Of a stretch of 12,210 bases of DNA, positions 3,785 to 11,744 are shown piece by piece; the first letter of the stretch is position 1, and each line of letters starts with the position of its first letter. The position numbers were made by a program, and so were the translations under genes. A model generated the notes under the pieces. That model did not search any database. It was not told the DNA's origin and saw only the letters and a list, made by a program, of their open reading frames with translations. The DNA is from a virus (taxonomy: Duplodnaviria > Heunggongvirae > Uroviricota > Caudoviricetes): IMG/VR virus record IMGVR_UViG_3300029647_000066; one strand, written 5' to 3'.

Positions 3785-6059
3785 AGCCTCCGGGCGTTTT
3801 GTCCCTCCGTCAGCATTTGCCGCAGGCACCGGTAAGGCGTTTACCGGTGCTTATGCATGGAACGCGCCACGCGAGGCTGTCGGGCGCGAAAGACCCCTTA
3901 CACGTGACGAGATGCGTCAGGTGCAAGGTGTTTTATCCACGATTAACCGCCTGCCTTACTTTTTGCGCTCGCTGTTTACCTCACGCTATGACTACATCCG
4001 GCGCAATAAAAGCCCGGTGCACGGGTTTTATTTCCTCACATCCACTTTTCAGCGTCGTTTATGGCCGCGCATTGAGCGCGTGAATCAGCGCCATGAAATG
4101 AACACCGACGCGTCGTTGCTGTTTCTGGCAGAGCGTGACCATTATGCGCGTCTGCCGGGGGTGAATGACAAGGAACTGAAAAAGTTTGCCGCCCGTATCT
4201 CATCGCAGCTTTTCATGATGTATGAGGAACTCTGCGATGCATGGGTTGATGCACATGGCGAGAAAGAATCGCTGTTTACGGATGAGGCTCAGGCGCATCT
4301 GTATGGTCATGTTGCTGGCGCTGCACGAGCTTTCAATATTTCCCCTCTCTACTGGAAAAAATACCGTAAAGGACAGATGACCACGAGGCAGGCATATTCT
4401 GCCATTGCCCGTCTGTTTAACGATGAGTGGTGGATTCATCAGCTTAAAGGTCAGCGTATGCGCTGGCATGAGGCGTTACTGATTGCTGTCGGGGAGGTGA
4501 ATAAAGACCGTTCTCCTTATGCCAGTAAACATGCCATTCGTGATGTGCGTGCACGCCGCCAGGCAAATCTGGAATTTCTTAAATCGTGTGACCTTGAAAA
4601 CAGGGAAACCGGCGAGCGCATCGACCTTATCAGTAAGGTGATGGGCAGTATTTCTAATCCTGAAATTCGCCGGATGGAGCTGATGAACACCATTGCCGGT
4701 ATTGAGCGTTACGCCGCCGCAGAGGGTGATGTGGGGATGTTTATCACGCTGACCGCGCCGTCAAAGTATCACCCGACACGTCAGGTCGGAAAAGGCGAAA
4801 GTAAAACCGTCCAGCTAAATCACGGCTGGAACGATGAGGCATTTAATCCAAAGGATGCGCAGCGTTATCTCTGCCGTATCTGGAGCCTGATGCGCACGGC
4901 ATTCAAGGATAATGATTTACAGGTCTACGGTTTGCGTGTCGTCGAGCCACACCACGACGGAACGCCGCACTGGCATATGATGCTTTTTTGTAATCCACGC
5001 CAGCGTAACCAGATTATCGAAATCATGCGTCGCTATGCGCTCAAAGAGGATGGCGACGAAAGAGGAGCCGCGCGAAACCGTTTTCAGGCAAAACACCTTA
5101 ACCGGGGCGGTGCTGCGGGGTATATCGCGAAATACATCTCAAAAAACATCGATGGCTATGCACTGGATGGTCAGCTCGATAACGATACCGGCAGACCGCT
5201 GAAAGACACTGCTGCGGCTGTTACCGCATGGGCGTCAACGTGGCGCATCCCACAATTTAAAACGGTTGGTCTGCCGACAATGGGGGCTTACCGTGAACTA
5301 CGCAAATTGCCTCGCGGCGTCAGCATTGCTGATGAGTTTGACGAACGCGTTGAGGCTGCACGTGCCGCCGCAGACAGTGGTGATTTTGCGTTGTATATCA
5401 GCGCGCAGGGTGGGGCAAATGTTCCGCGTGATTGTCAGACTGTCAGGGTTGCCCGTAGTCCGTCGGATGACGTTAACGAGTACGAGGAAGAAGTCGAGAG
5501 AGTGGTCGGCATTTACGCGCCGCATCTCGGCGCGCGTCATATTCATATCACCAGAACGACGGACTGGCGCATTGTGCCGAAAGTTCCGGTCGTTGAGCCT
5601 TTGACTTTAAAAAGCGGCATCGCCGCGCCTCGGAGTCCTGTCAATAACTGTGGAAAGCTCACCGGTGGTGATACTTCGTTACCGGCTCCCACACCTTCTG
5701 AGCACGCCGCAGCCGTGCTTAATCTGGTTGATGACGGTGTTATCGAATGGAATGACCCGGAGGTCGTGAGGGCGCTCAGGGGCGCATTAAAACACGGCCT
5801 GAGAACACCAAACCGTCAGCAAAGAAACGGAAGCCCGTTAAAACCGAATGAAATAGCGCCATCGGCCAGGCTGACCCGGTCGGAGCGTATGCAAATTACC
5901 CGTATCCGCGTTGACCTTGCTCAGAACGGTATCAGGCCGCAGCGATGGGAGCTTGAGGCGCTGGCGCGTGGCGCGACCGTAAATTATGACGGGAAAAAAT
6001 TCACGTATCCGGTCGCTGATGAGTGGCCGGGATTCTCAACAGTAATGGAGTGGAAATGA
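3774..6059 (+). CDS. A: Rolling-circle replication initiator endonuclease, P2 gene A family
   Basis: ORF track starts at 3732, but the internal ATG at 3774 (MAVKASGRF) gives 761 aa and avoids a long overlap with the upstream gene. HUH-type motif in GLRVVEPHHDGTPHWHMMLF and paired-tyrosine motif in AAGYIAKYISKNIDGY are hallmarks of phiX174/P2 A-type initiators. Confidence 0.9.
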   Translation: MAVKASGRFVPPSAFAAGTGKAFTGAYAWNAPREAVGRERPLTRDEMRQVQGVLSTINRLPYFLRSLFTSRYDYIRRNKSPVHGFYFLTSTFQRRLWPRIERVNQRHEMNTDASLLFLAERDHYARLPGVNDKELKKFAARISSQLFMMYEELCDAWVDAHGEKESLFTDEAQAHLYGHVAGAARAFNISPLYWKKYRKGQMTTRQAYSAIARLFNDEWWIHQLKGQRMRWHEALLIAVGEVNKDRSPYASKHAIRDVRARRQANLEFLKSCDLENRETGERIDLISKVMGSISNPEIRRMELMNTIAGIERYAAAEGDVGMFITLTAPSKYHPTRQVGKGESKTVQLNHGWNDEAFNPKDAQRYLCRIWSLMRTAFKDNDLQVYGLRVVEPHHDGTPHWHMMLFCNPRQRNQIIEIMRRYALKEDGDERGAARNRFQAKHLNRGGAAGYIAKYISKNIDGYALDGQLDNDTGRPLKDTAAAVTAWASTWRIPQFKTVGLPTMGAYRELRKLPRGVSIADEFDERVEAARAAADSGDFALYISAQGGANVPRDCQTVRVARSPSDDVNEYEEEVERVVGIYAPHLGARHIHITRTTDWRIVPKVPVVEPLTLKSGIAAPRSPVNNCGKLTGGDTSLPAPTPSEHAAAVLNLVDDGVIEWNDPEVVRALRGALKHGLRTPNRQQRNGSPLKPNEIAPSARLTRSERMQITRIRVDLAQNGIRPQRWELEALARGATVNYDGKKFTYPVADEWPGFSTVMEWK

Positions 6060-6511
6060 TGGCAAAAATTCACGAGGTAAAGCTGCACGCAAAATATTTT
6101 GACCTTGTGCTGGAAGGAAAGAAACGCGCAGAGTTTCGGAAAAATGACCGTAATTATGAGCGCGGGGACACGTTGATTTTGCATGAATGGGTGCAGGGTG
6201 TGTATACGGGGCGAAAGGTTGAAGCCCGGATAACAGATGTTACTGACTTGTCAGACTGGCTGGAAGATTATGTCTTGCTAAGTATTGAGCTGCTTAATAC
6301 AGGCGCATATGAGTTTGTGAACTGGAAAGAACTTAGTGAGCGTGGTCTGGTATTCAGAATTAATCATGAAATTATGCATCAGCTCGGCCTTGCTGTTGTG
6401 TATGAACCAGAGACGGGGATGTCTGGCGGGGCAGTGGTTGGTGCGGATGGGATATGGAACTATTCAGATGAACAGGTGGAGCGTGCACAGCAAAACGGGT
6501 GGCTTGGATAA
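6056..6511 (+). CDS. ASCH / DUF3850-like domain protein
   Basis: ORF track starts at a GTG at 6023; the ATG at 6056 overlaps the A stop (ATGA) and follows GGAG. N-terminal KIHEVKLHAKYFDLVLEGKKRAEFRKNDRNYERGDTLILHEW fits the DUF3850/ASCH pattern common in phage genomes. C-terminal half uncharacterised. Confidence 0.7.
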   Translation: MMAKIHEVKLHAKYFDLVLEGKKRAEFRKNDRNYERGDTLILHEWVQGVYTGRKVEARITDVTDLSDWLEDYVLLSIELLNTGAYEFVNWKELSERGLVFRINHEIMHQLGLAVVYEPETGMSGGAVVGADGIWNYSDEQVERAQQNGWLG

Positions 6512-6717: not shown

Positions 6718-7025
6718 AGAACGCAGCCAGCTCAGGATTGGCGGGGGATAGAATAACGAGCATAGTGATGCGATTAGACAAACAGACTGACTGGTACACT
6801 TAGGATGGTTATAGTGGTTTCTAAGTGCTTTAGCGATACATCTGGTGGACTGTTTTACCAACCTCAGAGTTAGCTGAATTTTTAACAAAATACCATTTTG
6901 ATAGATTTGCCTAATTTATTAATTAAACTATACTGGACTTATACACAGTGTTCTGTTAATTGTTAGGTTGGTAAGATATTGTGAGGAGGTGATTACTATC
7001 TTGGCATCAATCAAGTGGAGGTTAA

Positions 7026-7262
7026 ATGATGAATATATTTGAACGTATTATAGGTAAAGCTGCTATTGAAAAGGAAAGAGAACTGGCGAGGAGGCTTGAA
7101 GCATCTGGAACAAACACTGTTGAGGTGGTAGGTCGAGGCGCGATTATCACGTCTAAAGAAGACTTGGCAAGCTCAGATACAGTAAAATTGATGAAAATTA
7201 AAGCAAGAAAAATAGTTTCTGAGCAGGTAAAGCAAGAAGAAAAAATGGCTAAAGGGAATTAA
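7026..7262 (+). CDS. Small charged hypothetical protein, first gene of the rightward cargo operon
   Basis: 78-aa ORF, Lys/Glu-rich and probably helical. GGAGG at 7017-7021 four nt before the ATG. AT-rich codon usage unlike the backbone. The next gene starts 3 nt after its stop. Confidence 0.6.
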   Translation: MMNIFERIIGKAAIEKERELARRLEASGTNTVEVVGRGAIITSKEDLASSDTVKLMKIKARKIVSEQVKQEEKMAKGN

Positions 7263-7264
7263 TA

Positions 7265-8026
7265 ATGTTTGCTTTATTAATTATTCCATTACTTGTGAGT
7301 GGTTATATTGTATTAACCACTCATCCTTATCATTTCTATAGATTACACCGTTATGATGGGCAGTTGTTATATATGAAGTCAGCCGCCTTTGGTCTGTGGT
7401 GTTTTATATGGACATTGATTATAGCTTACTTAATAAAATGGATATGTCCTAGCTTCCATCCTGTCACGATGGTTCGGGAACAATTAGATCTCAAACTTAG
7501 TGACAATGGTACTGAAAGAATCATAGGATGGATGATTTTACTTTCATGTGGAACGATATTTTTGGCTTGGATATGGAGTGTCGGTGCTAGATATTTGGTT
7601 ATATATAGAGCTAAAATTATAAATTATATCCAAGGGGTAAAGGCTGCCAATATTGATTATGAGAATCTTGTCATGCTAAGGATGAGGCAAGAGCTTATTA
7701 ATGATAATCCAATGGATGAAATATTTTTTGATTCGTTAGTTGATAGACGTTCAATACTTATTACGTTGCAAAATAAAAAGACATATGTAGGAATTGTTAA
7801 CGCATTAGGTGAGCCTAACGAGAAAGAAGGACCTAACCAGTATGTTTCAATCTATCCTATTATCTCTGGGTATAGAGATAAGGATTCATTGAAAGTAATC
7901 TTGGTGAATGAATATAGAGAGCTTGAGGATGCTGATACTAGTATCATCTTTCCACTAAAAGAAATTTCGCAAGTTTCTTGGTTTGATATGGATATTCATA
8001 AAATAGTTGAAAATAATAAGGTGTAG
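7265..8026 (+). CDS. Predicted integral membrane protein (about 3 TM helices N-terminal, soluble C-terminal domain), function unknown
   Basis: 253-aa ORF with AAGGGA seven nt before the ATG. Hydrophobic segments FALLIIPLLVSGYIVL, AAFGLWCFIWTLIIAYLIKWI and IIGWMILLSCGTIFLAWIWSVGA, followed by a hydrophilic domain of about 130 aa. AT-rich. Ends just before a hairpin shared with the convergent operon. Confidence 0.7.
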   Translation: MFALLIIPLLVSGYIVLTTHPYHFYRLHRYDGQLLYMKSAAFGLWCFIWTLIIAYLIKWICPSFHPVTMVREQLDLKLSDNGTERIIGWMILLSCGTIFLAWIWSVGARYLVIYRAKIINYIQGVKAANIDYENLVMLRMRQELINDNPMDEIFFDSLVDRRSILITLQNKKTYVGIVNALGEPNEKEGPNQYVSIYPIISGYRDKDSLKVILVNEYRELEDADTSIIFPLKEISQVSWFDMDIHKIVENNKV

Positions 8027-8029
8027 TAA

Positions 8030-8054
8030 ATGGTCACCTATAAAAGGTGACCAT
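8030..8054. terminator. Bidirectional hairpin terminator between the convergent cargo operons
   Basis: Perfect 10-bp inverted repeat ATGGTCACCT (8030-8039) and AGGTGACCAT (8045-8054) with a 5-nt loop. It sits between the stop of the + gene (8026) and the stop of the - gene (8060), with T-rich sequence downstream on the + strand and A-rich sequence upstream. Confidence 0.6.
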
Positions 8055-8059
8055 AATGC

Positions 8060-10324
8060 TTATTTTTGACGAATCCTGATTTTTGGTTGTTCACGAACAA
8101 CAATATCAGTTTCTTTCCAACCAAGATTATTTATTTCAACCTCGGCTTCGTTGTAGACTGTAGTAGAATTGGCAAGAGATCTTAACGTAATAGCCAATAC
8201 AGCACGTTGAGGTGAAGATAGAGGCTCTTGCTCTGCTCGTCTCTGAACATCAAGTTTAAGTCTCCATTGCTCCCCATTTATACCTTGCGGAAATTGTTTT
8301 CTATAAACTTTGACTGGAGACCATTTGAAGCCATTTTCTATCAGTACCTTTTCAAATAATTCACTCTTTTCTTTTATTTGTGGAATTTTTCCGCTATGTA
8401 TCCATTTAGCGTTAACTGGATCATAAGTGTAAGTCCCGAATGACACATCCACATTAGAACGGCAATATTCAGATGGGTAGTCATAATCAAGCGGTGGAGA
8501 ATAAACGAGTGTCATAATAATTTCACCTGTGAATTTTCCATCCTCAGTACGTAATGACTGTGGTATTACAAATGGCGTTCTACTGAATTCAATACCTTCT
8601 CGGGTATCTATTTCAAATAGAAATGTAATCTCATTTTTATTGCAACCAATAATATCATTTATATGATCGCTTGGGCGTCCAAATCCTTGATAATTAAACG
8701 CATAATGCTCCGTTTTGGCTGGTGAGTTTTTTAACGCAGAATGAATTAATAGTGCCTTGATACGTTCAGGCGATGGTGAAATAGAACCATTAACATCTAG
8801 TTCATGCCACAGTGATGCCGCTAAACTTGAGATTAACGGTGCTGATAAACTTGTGCCAATACTTTCGCAAAGAGCATTGTCCTCGCCAATAGCTATGATT
8901 CCGGTATGTTCACAGTTTAATTTACTGTCACAATTACCTCCAAAGTGATTTATCTCTGGTTTGGGTATAAAGGCTGGGCCGGGACCTCTTCTAGAAAAAG
9001 ATGAAGGTTCAAATCTTTTGACCACAGAGTCAGACGATTCTAAATGGGCAACTGAGCCAACAGTTAATGAACGAACAGAATCTGCGGGGGCTGATATTCT
9101 GTCATGCCCACCTAATTCTTGAGGAGGCCAGGTTCGTTGAGGATCATAAATGTAGTTGCCGGATGCTACGACGAAAAGACAATCATGCTCATCATGAAGT
9201 GCATTTAAAAAATGCCCCAATTCAGAGAAGCTGTCTTCAGAACATGGGGATTGACAACCTAATGACAGATTCCATACACGTACTTCTGGATAGGTGGTCA
9301 CAGCCTCTCGGATAGCTTTCATTAATTGTGGCAATTTGAGCGTACCATCTTTGGGAAAGGCTGCAACATCAACAATTTCAGCTTGGCATTGAGGAAAACC
9401 AGCATAGTTATTCAACCATCTTCCATTAATTGCTAAACTTGCAACCATGTTCCCATGAGAATAGTCGTGTTCTCCTTTTACTAAATCTAAACTATCCCAA
9501 ATCCATGGCCTAAGTATGTTGTTATTGGGATCGACTCCGCTATCTATAATTCCGAGTAGTGGATAATGTTTATCCTCTTGAGGTAAGGGAAAATCATCTA
9601 GGTCTAGAGTTTCAGCAGGAATATATTGCGATACTGTATGAGTAAGACCAAATGTTGGCATAGGTTCTAATTTTCGTATGCCAATAAAACTTGCCAGTTG
9701 GGCGATGTTATCATTCCCTTTTACTTCATATATACTCAAATCTGAACTGATATCATACTTTTTGGGTTTTTGTATTCCTAGTTCATCTGCAAATTCCATT
9801 AATTCTTTGTCGATACTGCGGTTAGTTGTTCTATCTTTATGGTCAAAGAGTTTCAGAAGAAAACTATCTGATTTATTTTTATCTATAACATCATGGTTAA
9901 GACTAAAAGGTTCGATCTTTTCAATTACAGCAATATGTACTGTCCCATTATGAGAATTAGTGCTATTTTCAATTTTTTTGCGAAGTTGTGCTAACCCTTT
10001 TTCAGTAACACTTATAAGTAATTCTCCAAAATTATCACTGCCTATTACGGGACATGTATTATCACCTAATAGGCTTGATGGGCGATGTGACTTAGCAAGA
10101 GCTTTTTCATGAAGAGTAACTCTAGCCACCGCCGGTATATTGGGCCATTTTTTAAATGAGCTCTGGAAAAAATTTTTAACGTCATCGACTTCTTGTTTGA
10201 GTCTATTTTTTAGACTAGTTGTTACTGTTCGGATAGGTTGTTTCTTTCCGAAATTATATGTTTTTTCAGTAAAATCTTGAGGTGTCGCCTCAATTATTTT
10301 TATTGGTCTTTCTTTGTTACTCAT
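8060..10324 (-). CDS. Subtilisin-like serine peptidase (S8 family), predicted cytoplasmic, with N- and C-terminal extension domains
   Basis: 754-aa ORF. S8 catalytic motifs in canonical order: Asp in LLGIIDSGVD (about residue 261), His in DYSHGNMVASLA (about 290), oxyanion Asn in FVVASGNY (about 390), Ser in GTSLSAPLISSLAASL (about 492). No N-terminal hydrophobic signal sequence. Its ATG overlaps the stop of the upstream ATPase gene (ATGA at 10321-10324). Confidence 0.9.
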   Translation of the reverse strand: MSNKERPIKIIEATPQDFTEKTYNFGKKQPIRTVTTSLKNRLKQEVDDVKNFFQSSFKKWPNIPAVARVTLHEKALAKSHRPSSLLGDNTCPVIGSDNFGELLISVTEKGLAQLRKKIENSTNSHNGTVHIAVIEKIEPFSLNHDVIDKNKSDSFLLKLFDHKDRTTNRSIDKELMEFADELGIQKPKKYDISSDLSIYEVKGNDNIAQLASFIGIRKLEPMPTFGLTHTVSQYIPAETLDLDDFPLPQEDKHYPLLGIIDSGVDPNNNILRPWIWDSLDLVKGEHDYSHGNMVASLAINGRWLNNYAGFPQCQAEIVDVAAFPKDGTLKLPQLMKAIREAVTTYPEVRVWNLSLGCQSPCSEDSFSELGHFLNALHDEHDCLFVVASGNYIYDPQRTWPPQELGGHDRISAPADSVRSLTVGSVAHLESSDSVVKRFEPSSFSRRGPGPAFIPKPEINHFGGNCDSKLNCEHTGIIAIGEDNALCESIGTSLSAPLISSLAASLWHELDVNGSISPSPERIKALLIHSALKNSPAKTEHYAFNYQGFGRPSDHINDIIGCNKNEITFLFEIDTREGIEFSRTPFVIPQSLRTEDGKFTGEIIMTLVYSPPLDYDYPSEYCRSNVDVSFGTYTYDPVNAKWIHSGKIPQIKEKSELFEKVLIENGFKWSPVKVYRKQFPQGINGEQWRLKLDVQRRAEQEPLSSPQRAVLAITLRSLANSTTVYNEAEVEINNLGWKETDIVVREQPKIRIRQK

Positions 10325-11484
10325 AATATCTCTCTATAGTTCTTAGTTAGCCTTGACACTTTAGCATTTGAAAGCCCTAGTATTTTTGCTATCTTTCGTA
10401 TTGTAAATCTTTTGGGATTGTATTCTCTGAGAGTGGTCACAATCTTTATAAGTAAATTATCTTCTTCATCAAATGTAACTCCCTTCGCTTCTAAGATAGC
10501 CTCGACTAAAAATCGGGTATCGATTTGTTTATTATTGTAAACCAGAGCATGTCGCTCAGATCTTAAGCAGCATTGTTCTATAAATGAGCAGTTTAGCCCT
10601 GATGATATTTCCGCAAGGTCATCAACAAAATCGTCATATGTAGCTTTTATGTTTGAATATTGTTCAAATAGTTGTTTTCTGACTTCAAAATCAGGCAATC
10701 CAATAGATATTCTATACTCAAAGCGCCTCCAAACTGCGCTATCTAGAAGATTTTCATGATTACTTGCAGCAATCAATATTGTTTCTTCAGGTAGATTGTC
10801 AATATTTTGCAATAAAGAAACCACCACCCTCTTCAGTTCACCTAACTCATGCTGATCATCTCTAGCCTTTGCTAGAGAATCTAGTTCATCTAGAAATAAA
10901 ACACATGGTGCTTTACTTGCATACTCAAATAGCTGCCTGATATTTTTAGAAGTAGACCCCAGATATGATGAGACTAAGGAGTCACATCTTGCAGTAAGAA
11001 GCGGTAAATTTAGACAGGATGCAATATATTTTGATGTCAAGGTTTTACCACAACCTGGTGGCCCATATAAAATCATAGAGGATGTCACGCCAAGACCGGC
11101 ATCCTTTAATTCTTTAGCTCGTTCAGTGAAAGTCAAAAATTCTTTAATTTTTTTCAGAGTGCTATCTTTCAACAATGGGAGTTGAATTTCAGAAGACGGT
11201 TGAGTTACGTCTGCTAAATCAAATTTAGTTTCTTTATCTACAGGTAATGTATCAAGACGTTCAAAAATAGGTGATGTACTGCGTGATACTTTCTGCAAGT
11301 TAAACGTGTTTTTATCTTGAATACTACCTCTAATGGCTGAAGCAAGCTCAGGCAGCCCCATAGAATCATAGGAACGCGCGAGTTTCGAAGCCTGCCGAAC
11401 AAAAGCAACTTTATCCCCTTTGAGTCCAAGACTGATAAGCTGCGAAAGTATCTCGTTTGTGGTCATTTGTGATACAAACCTCAT
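10321..11484 (-). CDS. AAA+ ATPase (classic-clade AAA domain) with C-terminal HTH-like tail
   Basis: 387-aa ORF. Walker A in LYGPPGCGKT (about residue 147), Walker B in CVLFLDELD (about 199-200), second-region-of-homology-like segment in AASNHENLLDSAVWRRFEYRISIGLP. C-terminal RKIAKILGLSNAKVSRLTKNY resembles a helix-turn-helix. First gene of the leftward cargo operon; start could instead be the second ATG at 11466. Confidence 0.9.
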   Translation of the reverse strand: MRFVSQMTTNEILSQLISLGLKGDKVAFVRQASKLARSYDSMGLPELASAIRGSIQDKNTFNLQKVSRSTSPIFERLDTLPVDKETKFDLADVTQPSSEIQLPLLKDSTLKKIKEFLTFTERAKELKDAGLGVTSSMILYGPPGCGKTLTSKYIASCLNLPLLTARCDSLVSSYLGSTSKNIRQLFEYASKAPCVLFLDELDSLAKARDDQHELGELKRVVVSLLQNIDNLPEETILIAASNHENLLDSAVWRRFEYRISIGLPDFEVRKQLFEQYSNIKATYDDFVDDLAEISSGLNCSFIEQCCLRSERHALVYNNKQIDTRFLVEAILEAKGVTFDEEDNLLIKIVTTLREYNPKRFTIRKIAKILGLSNAKVSRLTKNYREIL

Positions 11485-11725
11485 TAATCTGTTGTCTAAA
11501 TGGCTTATAGGTGAGACAAATTTCTATTTTAATGTAGTTTATATGTATTTTGGTGAAACGAACACTATGTTTTACATAAATCTTTCAGGTTTGGAGTTCT
11601 TGGAGGGCATAGAGTTGCATCAATTTGCATTCTAATTAGACTTTTTTATTGCTATCGTATTCTACATGTGACTAGGTCTGCCCTTCCTGATGCGTTTGCA
11701 TTAAAACCTCCCCATGAAGCGGGCG

Positions 11726-11744
11726 GGCGAGGCGGGGAAAGCAC
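11726..11744 (+). other. cos site (P2-type 19-nt cohesive end)
   Basis: GGCGAGGCGGGGAAAGCAC is present exactly and matches the P2 cohesive-end sequence as I recall it. It lies in a GC-rich block just after the cargo island, where the P2 map places cos (after the tin/old slot). Confidence 0.6.

Follow-up and report, generated by a model that had tools for sequence, protein, structure and literature searches.

Phased repeats and a predicted helix-turn-helix tail suggest that the AAA+ antitoxin IetA of a P2-like prophage may regulate its own operon

The window analysed here is a stretch of 12,210 nucleotides from a virus of the Caudoviricetes (IMG/VR record IMGVR_UViG_3300029647_000066), and its minus strand carries an open reading frame (ORF, 10321..11484) that encodes an AAA+ ATPase of 387 amino acids, followed by a peptidase gene. 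The question that this locus raises is what the ATPase does for its neighbour, and whether the C-terminal segment, in which an earlier note made from the sequence alone had seen a likeness to a helix-turn-helix (HTH), gives it a second role on DNA. We propose that the ORF is, almost certainly, ietA, whose product is the AAA+ ATPase that partners the subtilase IetS in the IetAS system (Gao_Iet). The full explanation that we favour, and that we hold to be likely as a whole, is that of a cargo gene for an AAA remodeller with an N-terminal recognition domain and HTH-mediated autorepression.

The assignment is carried by profile matches along the whole protein. The PADLOC IetA profile PDLC02196 matches with an E value of 9e-132, residues 9-382 lying on profile positions 3-370 of 374, and the NCBIfam model NF042959 (IteA_antiphage) matches with E 7.5e-116 over profile positions 8-367 of 367. 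The following gene, whose start overlaps the ietA stop within ATGA, matches Pfam Peptidase_S8 (E 7e-24), PADLOC IetS (E 1e-273) and NCBIfam IteS_antiphage (E 4e-235); both members of the pair align end to end with the NCBIfam models, and the catalytic residues D261, H290 and S492 of IetS are present together with the oxyanion residue N352. The pair thus shares with IetA/IetS (IteA/IteS for NCBI) the gene order, the overlapping genes, the full-length profiles, the intact S8 triad and the location on a mobile element. In nearly all of 75 IetA-like loci drawn from genomes, viral contigs and metagenomes, ietA is directly followed by a gene for an IetS homologue, wherever the DNA is long enough. 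The two genes are placed as follows.

10321..11466, minus strand: probable ietA coding sequence, 381 amino acids from M7, with full-length PADLOC and NCBIfam matches; the ORF reaches an upstream ATG at 11484
8060..10324, minus strand: ietS, S8 subtilase toxin/effector of 754 amino acids, by Pfam, PADLOC and NCBIfam matches and catalytic residues

The true start of ietA is probably M7 (ATG 11466), because this is where homologues begin (MTTNE..), as does the gene of an identical E. coli locus in its PGAP annotation, and a conserved GAGG Shine-Dalgarno sequence lies 12 nt 5' of this ATG. The sequence GAGGTTTGTATCAC, directly upstream of ATG 11466, is kept across relatives.

With the ORF recognised as IetA, no claim to a new system is made: ietAS has been described before, as have its location in a prophage and its behaviour in toxin-antitoxin and abortive-infection terms. 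The system was reportedly first described by Yamamoto in 2009 on pTiC58, where the toxin is IetS, a subtilisin-like protein, and the antitoxin is the AAA-ATPase IetA, and ietAS is said to have been listed as an anti-phage system by Gao in 2020. IetAS was first found as a determinant of plasmid stability and incompatibility. In Bacillus, a homologue works through abortive infection; its trigger is the SPbeta protein YosG, whose expression suffices in the absence of infection. The ietAS of E. coli ECOR52 has been tested alone and in combinations and gives phage protection. A further study reports that defence needs the protease activity and that plasmids with mutated ietA could not be built. The mechanism of IetAS was still termed unknown in 2026. 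The earlier note had rightly paired the ATPase with a co-encoded peptidase and had not recognised in them the known defence system, which PADLOC and NCBIfam match in both proteins. Its proposal that the ATPase activates the peptidase is not supported by the homologues tested, in which the ATPase neutralises the protease (IetAS of pTiC58, SgiAT of Salmonella genomic island 1 (SGI1) and TA132/133 of Mycoplasma mycoides, where the protease is toxic, and likewise ietHAS). The unfoldase role proposed in the same place fares better, an unfoldase-type activity of IetA being plausible from its classic-clade core with an intact pore loop.

The organisation of the protein was derived from an AlphaFold2 model built with a 109-sequence alignment (mean predicted local distance difference test, pLDDT, 86.6). 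From the N-terminus to the C-terminus, the following parts are predicted.

11317..11460, minus strand: N-terminal three-helix domain, residues 9-56 (AlphaFold2 helices 9-22, 25-41 and 45-56, pLDDT 82-90)
11248..11316, minus strand: variable, predicted disordered linker, residues 57-79 (pLDDT <50 at 59-71; gaps and high entropy)
11209..11247, minus strand: near-invariant motif LPVDxExxxxLAD (residues 80-92) that immediately precedes the AAA fold
10699..11172, minus strand: AAA large (alpha/beta) subdomain, residues 105-262 (Pfam AAA, invariant columns, fold matches)
10480..10695, minus strand: AAA lid, the small helical subdomain, residues 264-335 (AlphaFold2 helices 266-333, pLDDT >90)
10327..10464, minus strand: predicted C-terminal tri-helical HTH, residues 341-386 (AlphaFold2, fold search)

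Pfam AAA (PF00004) covers residues 137-262 with E 1e-31. Five elements are invariant or near-invariant in the 109 homologues, namely Walker A GPPGCGKT at 141-148 (K147; window 11041-11064), Walker B VLFLDELD at 195-202 (D199, E200; window 10879-10902), pore loop 1 SSYLGST at 172-178 (YLG 174-176; window 10951-10971), sensor 1 with N242 (sensor 1 at window 10753-10770) and the arginine fingers R253/R254 in WRRF at 252-255 (window 10720-10731). The earlier note had put Walker A near residue 147, Walker B near 199 and a segment like the second region of homology (SRH) near 235-260, and these positions are confirmed by K147, D199 and R253/R254. Its N-terminal domain of about 130 amino acids comes out shorter, the region ahead of the AAA fold having about 105 amino acids in the model and the alignment; the description of this region as uncharacterised stands, with no described family matched in Pfam and PDB profile searches. 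The best PDB-profile and Foldseek matches of the core are p97/Cdc48, proteasomal Rpt/PAN, FtsH, Rix7/NVL and Vps4, the PDB profile match to AAA proteins stopping at about residues 304-316, and neither search returned a solved IetA structure. Judged by its sequence and fold matches, with SRH, two arginine fingers and pore loop 1 all present, the IetA core is a classic-clade AAA of the p97/Rpt/FtsH/Vps4 type, and it is probably hexameric.

Such a core also lends itself to another explanation, in which IetA would be mainly the unfoldase of a two-component ATP-dependent protease, threading substrates into IetS in the manner of Rpt/PAN and the proteasome or of FtsH, and the toxicity of lone IetS would reflect ungated proteolysis. 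This is consistent with the classic-clade fold and its invariant aromatic-hydrophobic-Gly pore loop, which are closest to proteasomal ATPases, p97 and FtsH, with the overlap and constant adjacency of ietA and ietS, and with the failure to construct mutated-ietA plasmids, from which the ATPase appears to be needed. However, the genetics in four systems show the ATPase neutralising the protease, and a complex or a substrate is not known. We regard the explanation as somewhat unlikely, and it would in any case leave room for the HTH and the autoregulation in the one that we favour.

The role of the pair in its present host may also be questioned, since IetAS was discovered as a plasmid stability/incompatibility determinant, SgiAT stabilises SGI1 and an identical cargo is fixed in many P2-like prophages. 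The pair could then be chiefly an addiction or stabilisation module for the prophage or its cargo rather than an anti-phage defence. Against this stand the locus itself, the gpA-cos-gpQ hotspot that in P2 holds old and tin, which are genes for phage exclusion, and elsewhere many defence systems (PMC9122126), and the phage protection afforded by the ECOR52 ietAS and other homologues. We consider this role unlikely to be the chief one, and addiction and defence are not exclusive of each other.

In the explanation that we favour, IetA is an AAA remodeller with accessory domains at both ends, and the AAA core, the N-terminal domain and the C-terminal tail of the window protein are common to more than 100 homologues. 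The N-terminal three-helix domain is the most variable structured part of the protein (high column entropy); it has no meaningful Pfam match among 29 N-terminal regions scanned, and its best PDB profile match is a TPR-like repeat with E 0.001. An N-terminus like the MIT domain, with a three-helix bundle and a linker ahead of the AAA domain as in Vps4, was considered and dropped, nothing being found in its support. The motif that follows the linker has P81, D83, L90 and D92 conserved at 90% or more in the 109 homologues, with pLDDT 84-91 and a strand at 91-94 in the model. It can be hypothesised that the N-terminal domain is a recognition module for the partner or the trigger, and its variability would fit this role.

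The C-terminal tail is where the second role on DNA would lie. After the lid, AlphaFold2 predicts with high confidence helices at 341-355, 362-369 (helix 2) and 373-386 (the recognition helix SNAKVSRLTKNYREIL). The predicted arrangement is that of a tri-helical HTH in which helices 2 and 3 are joined by a turn and the recognition helix is exposed, and a fold search with the tail gives HTHs bound to DNA as top structural matches; a PDB sequence search with the tail profile returned no HTH, these being found by fold comparison alone. The tail is basic, with 11 K/R against 4 D/E, and conserves F360, T361, S372, K375 and S377. HTH_28, HTH_23, HTH_24, Sigma70_r4, HTH_11, MarR and other models match below threshold in the window protein and in subsets of 40 homologous tails, many of the families in 2-8 of the 40. 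Nearly all IetA homologues examined have an HTH-like C-terminal end, even those of a different sequence class (for example ..LGVSRQTISxYLK), and the homologue of the Ri plasmid ends likewise. The tail is missing in one small clade, loci L012-L014 from Halomonas, Nitrosomonas and Chloroflexi contigs, whose proteins of about 330-360 amino acids end at the lid and whose S8 protease gene still lies immediately downstream; the PADLOC IetA model PDLC04232, with 330 positions, may represent this short form. We conclude from the model that the tail very probably has an HTH fold. The resemblance pointed out in the earlier note is thereby borne out, the prediction placing a separate tri-helical HTH outside the AAA lid.

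If the tail binds DNA, its targets may be expected near the gene. Upstream of ietA, on the same strand, the window contains the following elements.

11469..11478, minus strand: box 3, TTTGTATCAC, between the Shine-Dalgarno GAGG and the start codon; kept in loci L092, L094, L105 and L106
11510..11520, minus strand: box 2, TTTGTCTCACC, 42 bp upstream of box 3, in the spacer of the candidate promoter; position kept in relatives
11552..11559, minus strand: box 1, GTTTCACC, 42 bp upstream of box 2; a weaker match
11504..11532, minus strand: candidate sigma-70 promoter, read by eye, with a putative -35 TTAAAA at 11527-11532, a 17-nt spacer that holds box 2 and a putative -10 TATAAG at 11504-11509

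The chain of boxes lies at -93, -51 and -9 relative to ietA. Boxes 2 and 3 are the only matches to TTTGTATCAC with at most one mismatch in the 12-kb window, and the pair is kept in relatives whose IetA is 84%, 66% and 57% identical, one of these loci being from Pectobacterium and not part of a P2 prophage. The position of the candidate -10 reads TTAAAC, TAAATC or TTAAAT in relatives. A palindromic operator was rejected, the region upstream of ietA being without a convincing inverted repeat.

The significance of the repeats was assessed across the family. In 46 representative loci, each with less than 80% IetA identity to the others, same-strand recurrences of 8-mers with at most one mismatch were counted in the 130 nt upstream of ietA and compared with shuffled sequences. 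Related loci had been collected with a sub-alignment of residues 203-262, which holds IetA-specific patterns; the whole-protein alignment drew mostly unrelated AAA genes through Walker A, and the N-terminal alignment was too variable. Certain spacings stand out, all remaining ones being at background.

20 bp: pair in 9/46 loci; shuffle mean 2.20, shuffle maximum 5
21 bp: pair in 20/46 loci; shuffle mean 1.9, shuffle maximum 6
41 bp: pair in 9/46 loci; shuffle mean 1.62, shuffle maximum 5
42 bp: pair in 18/46 loci; shuffle mean 1.71, shuffle maximum 5
63 bp: pair in 6/46 loci; shuffle mean 1.29, shuffle maximum 5

A pair at 20, 21, 41 or 42 bp occurs within -130..+3 in 34 of the 46 loci, against 4-9 of 41-46 loci in six control regions located further upstream or within ietA or ietS. 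The result was replicated in 42 further, independent metagenomic loci, which share <80% identity with one another and with the first 46; 40 of them have a pair, and the spacings peak at 20-21, 40-42 and 60-63 bp. Chains of 3-6 boxes are seen in the metagenomic loci, most commonly TTGTTCA(C/T), and many loci have boxes overlapping the ribosome-binding site, the spacer or a recognisable -35 or -10. The maximum copy number of any 7-mer, a statistic also tried, failed to tell real upstream regions from shuffled ones, since these regions are AT-rich; the signal is one of spacing rather than count. The Ri-plasmid homologue, which stands in for pTiC58 as the latter was absent among the plasmid matches, has four boxes of the TTTAC(A/G) type at a spacing of about 21 bp. 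As a side observation, the commonest box of the family, TGTTCAC(C) (for instance at L110, L116, L168, L172 and L212), presumably resembles TGTTCACC, which we take to be the type I iteron of the alpha protein of satellite phage P4, a parasite of P2. Boxes of this type also occur far from any P2/P4 context, and the likeness may be coincidental.

The repeats are further connected to the tail by their sequence, as the box shifts with the class of the recognition helix across loci; TTGTTCAC, paired with the STGKIS helix, is an example of a different class.

Recognition helix AKVSRLT: box TTTGTnTCA
Recognition helix STGKIS: box TTCAT / TGTTCA
Recognition helix SKTxVS: box CGTTC
Recognition helix SRQTIS: box TTGACAA
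Recognition helix SLRKVR: box AATAACA

Tail-less loci are without an array (array in 0/3, against 35/42; Fisher p 0.008). These observations bear on a further explanation, that the three-helix bundle is a protein-interaction module, contacting a neighbouring protomer, IetS or a trigger from a phage, and that the repeats are bound by another factor or belong to an unrelated promoter architecture. It is quite improbable in view of the DNA-bound HTHs at the top of the structural matches, the basic character of the tail, the dependence of the box on the type of recognition helix and its absence from tail-less loci, and ietAS has no consistent link to a gene for any other regulator. That the HTH array would instead be a sensor, so that IetA, by binding repeated sites on the DNA of an invading phage or on replication intermediates, would release or activate IetS, is very improbable, given that the repeats sit precisely within 130 nt 5' of ietA in about 85% of 88 loci, where they overlap promoter and ribosome-binding-site elements, and that the sole trigger identified so far is the phage protein YosG.

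Several points weigh against autorepression of ietAS by the tail, and against the direct use of results from other IetAS systems. The evidence for the HTH and the operator is wholly predictive or comparative, and binding, repression and oligomeric state are putative. No Pfam HTH model reaches its gathering score, the best match, HTH_28 (E 0.02 with the whole protein and 9e-4 with the tail alone), scoring 19.7 bits against a cut-off of 25. The window holds only three boxes, at the double spacing of 42 bp and with box 1 weak, and a sigma-70 consensus scan calls no promoter upstream of ietA. The covariation of box and recognition helix is confounded by shared ancestry, and the tail-less control consists of three loci from a single clade. 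At the level of the whole pair, the IteA score of 387.3 bits lies below the NCBIfam equivalog cut-off of 510 and the IteS score of 782.4 bits below that of 900, which is why PGAP gives the generic names 'AAA family ATPase' and 'S8 family peptidase'. From the sequences, these scores indicate a diverged enterobacterial subtype of the same IetA/IetS family, so that results obtained with other IetAS systems may not apply to it in every detail. With these points taken into account, we judge autoregulation of ietAS by the IetA tail through the boxes to be reasonably probable, from sequence comparison and the predicted fold. The proposal of nucleic-acid binding or autoregulation in the earlier note thus gains strong, indirect support from the 20-21 bp phasing of the repeats, their covariation with the recognition helix and their absence where the tail is absent.

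We therefore retain IetA as a self-regulating antitoxin and propose the following mechanism. IetA would be an AAA remodeller, with an intact aromatic pore loop and arginine fingers, that spends ATP to keep IetS harmless, whether by continuous remodelling or unfolding, by gating or by substrate feeding. The family-specific N-terminal helical domain would bind the partner or the trigger. The C-terminal HTH would bind same-strand boxes spaced by 20-21 bp over the promoter and ribosome-binding site of its own gene, and this binding would repress ietAS and steady the antitoxin-to-toxin ratio as in type II antitoxins. Several HTHs of one oligomer may contact the boxes along one face of the DNA, as suggested by 21 bp being two helical turns. 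A more specific version, which we put forward tentatively, is that IetA is a classic-clade AAA+ ring doubling as a sequence-specific repressor, whose HTHs would read an iteron-like phased array so that its assembly or nucleotide state would be wired to the transcription of the operon. The combination of tail and phased boxes is conserved across bacterial phyla, and it is apparently undescribed as a regulatory architecture: nothing that we found in the searchable literature mentions, for IetA, SgiA or proteins related to them, a tail with an HTH, phased repeats or autoregulation.

Each element of this proposal has a counterpart elsewhere. SgiA/SgiT and TA132/133 also combine an AAA-ATPase antitoxin with an S8-protease toxin, as proven by toxicity-neutralisation assays, but the hosts and elements in which they occur are others, and what is reported for them is a role in stabilisation or as toxin-antitoxin, not in defence against phages. 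The authors of the SgiAT study found expression from the native promoter too low for post-segregational killing, and a weak native promoter would fit tight autorepression, by analogy with the arrangement proposed here. Type II antitoxins with an HTH, such as HigA, MqsA and HipB, autorepress their operon; IetA is likewise encoded first in its operon, has a predicted DNA-binding domain and, like autoregulated type II operons, has repeats over its own promoter and ribosome-binding site. It differs in that the neutralising part is a 330-amino-acid ATP-driven AAA machine rather than a small binding peptide, and in that its putative sites are 3-6 direct repeats at 20-21 bp, whereas type II antitoxins use one or two palindromes. 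AAA+ proteins with a C-terminal HTH acting on arrays of sites are exemplified by DnaA (domain IV and DnaA boxes) and by the NtrC-type enhancer-binding proteins (Fis-like HTH). These belong to the initiator and sigma-54-activator clades, in contrast to the classic clade of the IetA core, and we know of no classic-clade AAA protein fused to a sequence-specific HTH. Finally, the TRIP13/Pch2-like ATPases of type III CBASS (cyclic-oligonucleotide-based anti-phage signalling systems) are likewise AAA+ remodellers and negative regulators of a defence effector. PADLOC gives IetA a weak match to TRIP13 (E 1.6e-14, AAA core only), but IetA has no HORMA partner, its effector is a protease, and TRIP13 is without an HTH.

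The genomic setting of the pair is that of a P2-like (Peduovirus) prophage integrated beside pflA in E. coli, with integrase, C, Cox, B, A and DUF3850/ASCH genes followed by cos and the portal gene. The DUF3850/ASCH + DUF7415 protein (6023-6511, plus strand) ends the conserved P2 early region just ahead of the cargo and is found in most relatives. The following features surround ietAS.

6731..11686, strand not assigned: variable cargo segment between gene A/DUF3850 and cos/portal, delimited by blastn against two other P2-like genomes
7026-7262 and 7265-8026, plus strand: two unknown ORFs of 78 and 253 amino acids, convergent with ietS, matching only PHROGs of unknown function

The cargo holds ietAS and the two plus-strand ORFs and has a G+C content of 33-42%, against 44-56% in the flanks. 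The sequence GGCGAGGCGGGGAAAGCAC at 11726-11744 (plus strand) is presumably the 19-nt P2 cohesive end; the linear records of P2-like phages terminate at window positions 11742-11743, and between cos and the start of ietA there are about 260 bp. Hundreds of contigs carry the identical IetA protein, and the eight contexts listed for it (8/8) show the same prophage setting. In two E. coli relatives with near-identical prophages, H1 (NZ_AP022362.1) and H7 (NZ_CP022154.1), the region matching the window is broken by ISEc12 (IS21-like) or IS30. A hairpin with a 10-bp stem, ATGGTCACCTATAAAAGGTGACCAT, lies at 8030-8054 between the 253-amino-acid ORF and ietS and is, from its sequence, probably a bidirectional terminator.

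The two convergent ORFs distinguish the pair of the window, in Enterobacterales, from IetA/IetS as otherwise known. Neither has a Pfam, PADLOC or NCBIfam match, and the 253-amino-acid protein has three hydrophobic N-terminal segments, at about 1-21, 39-64 and 85-108. They accompany ietAS down to 57% IetA identity, including the non-P2 Pectobacterium locus, and diverge in step with IetA (88/76/56% and 88/71/53%, against 84/66/57% for IetA); beside Acinetobacter ietAS they are absent. They may be an accessory part of the subtype or a linked second cassette, and the analysis flags both as uncharacterised companions of ietAS in Enterobacterales.

As a defence and toxin-antitoxin system, IetAS is widespread, and the boxes at 11469-11478, 11510-11520 and 11552-11559 offer exact DNA targets for binding and reporter work. 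The architecture described here points to a possible link between the oligomer state of the antitoxin and the expression of its operon. If IetA does act as a ring and a repressor at once, this may explain the plasmid-incompatibility phenotype behind the name iet.

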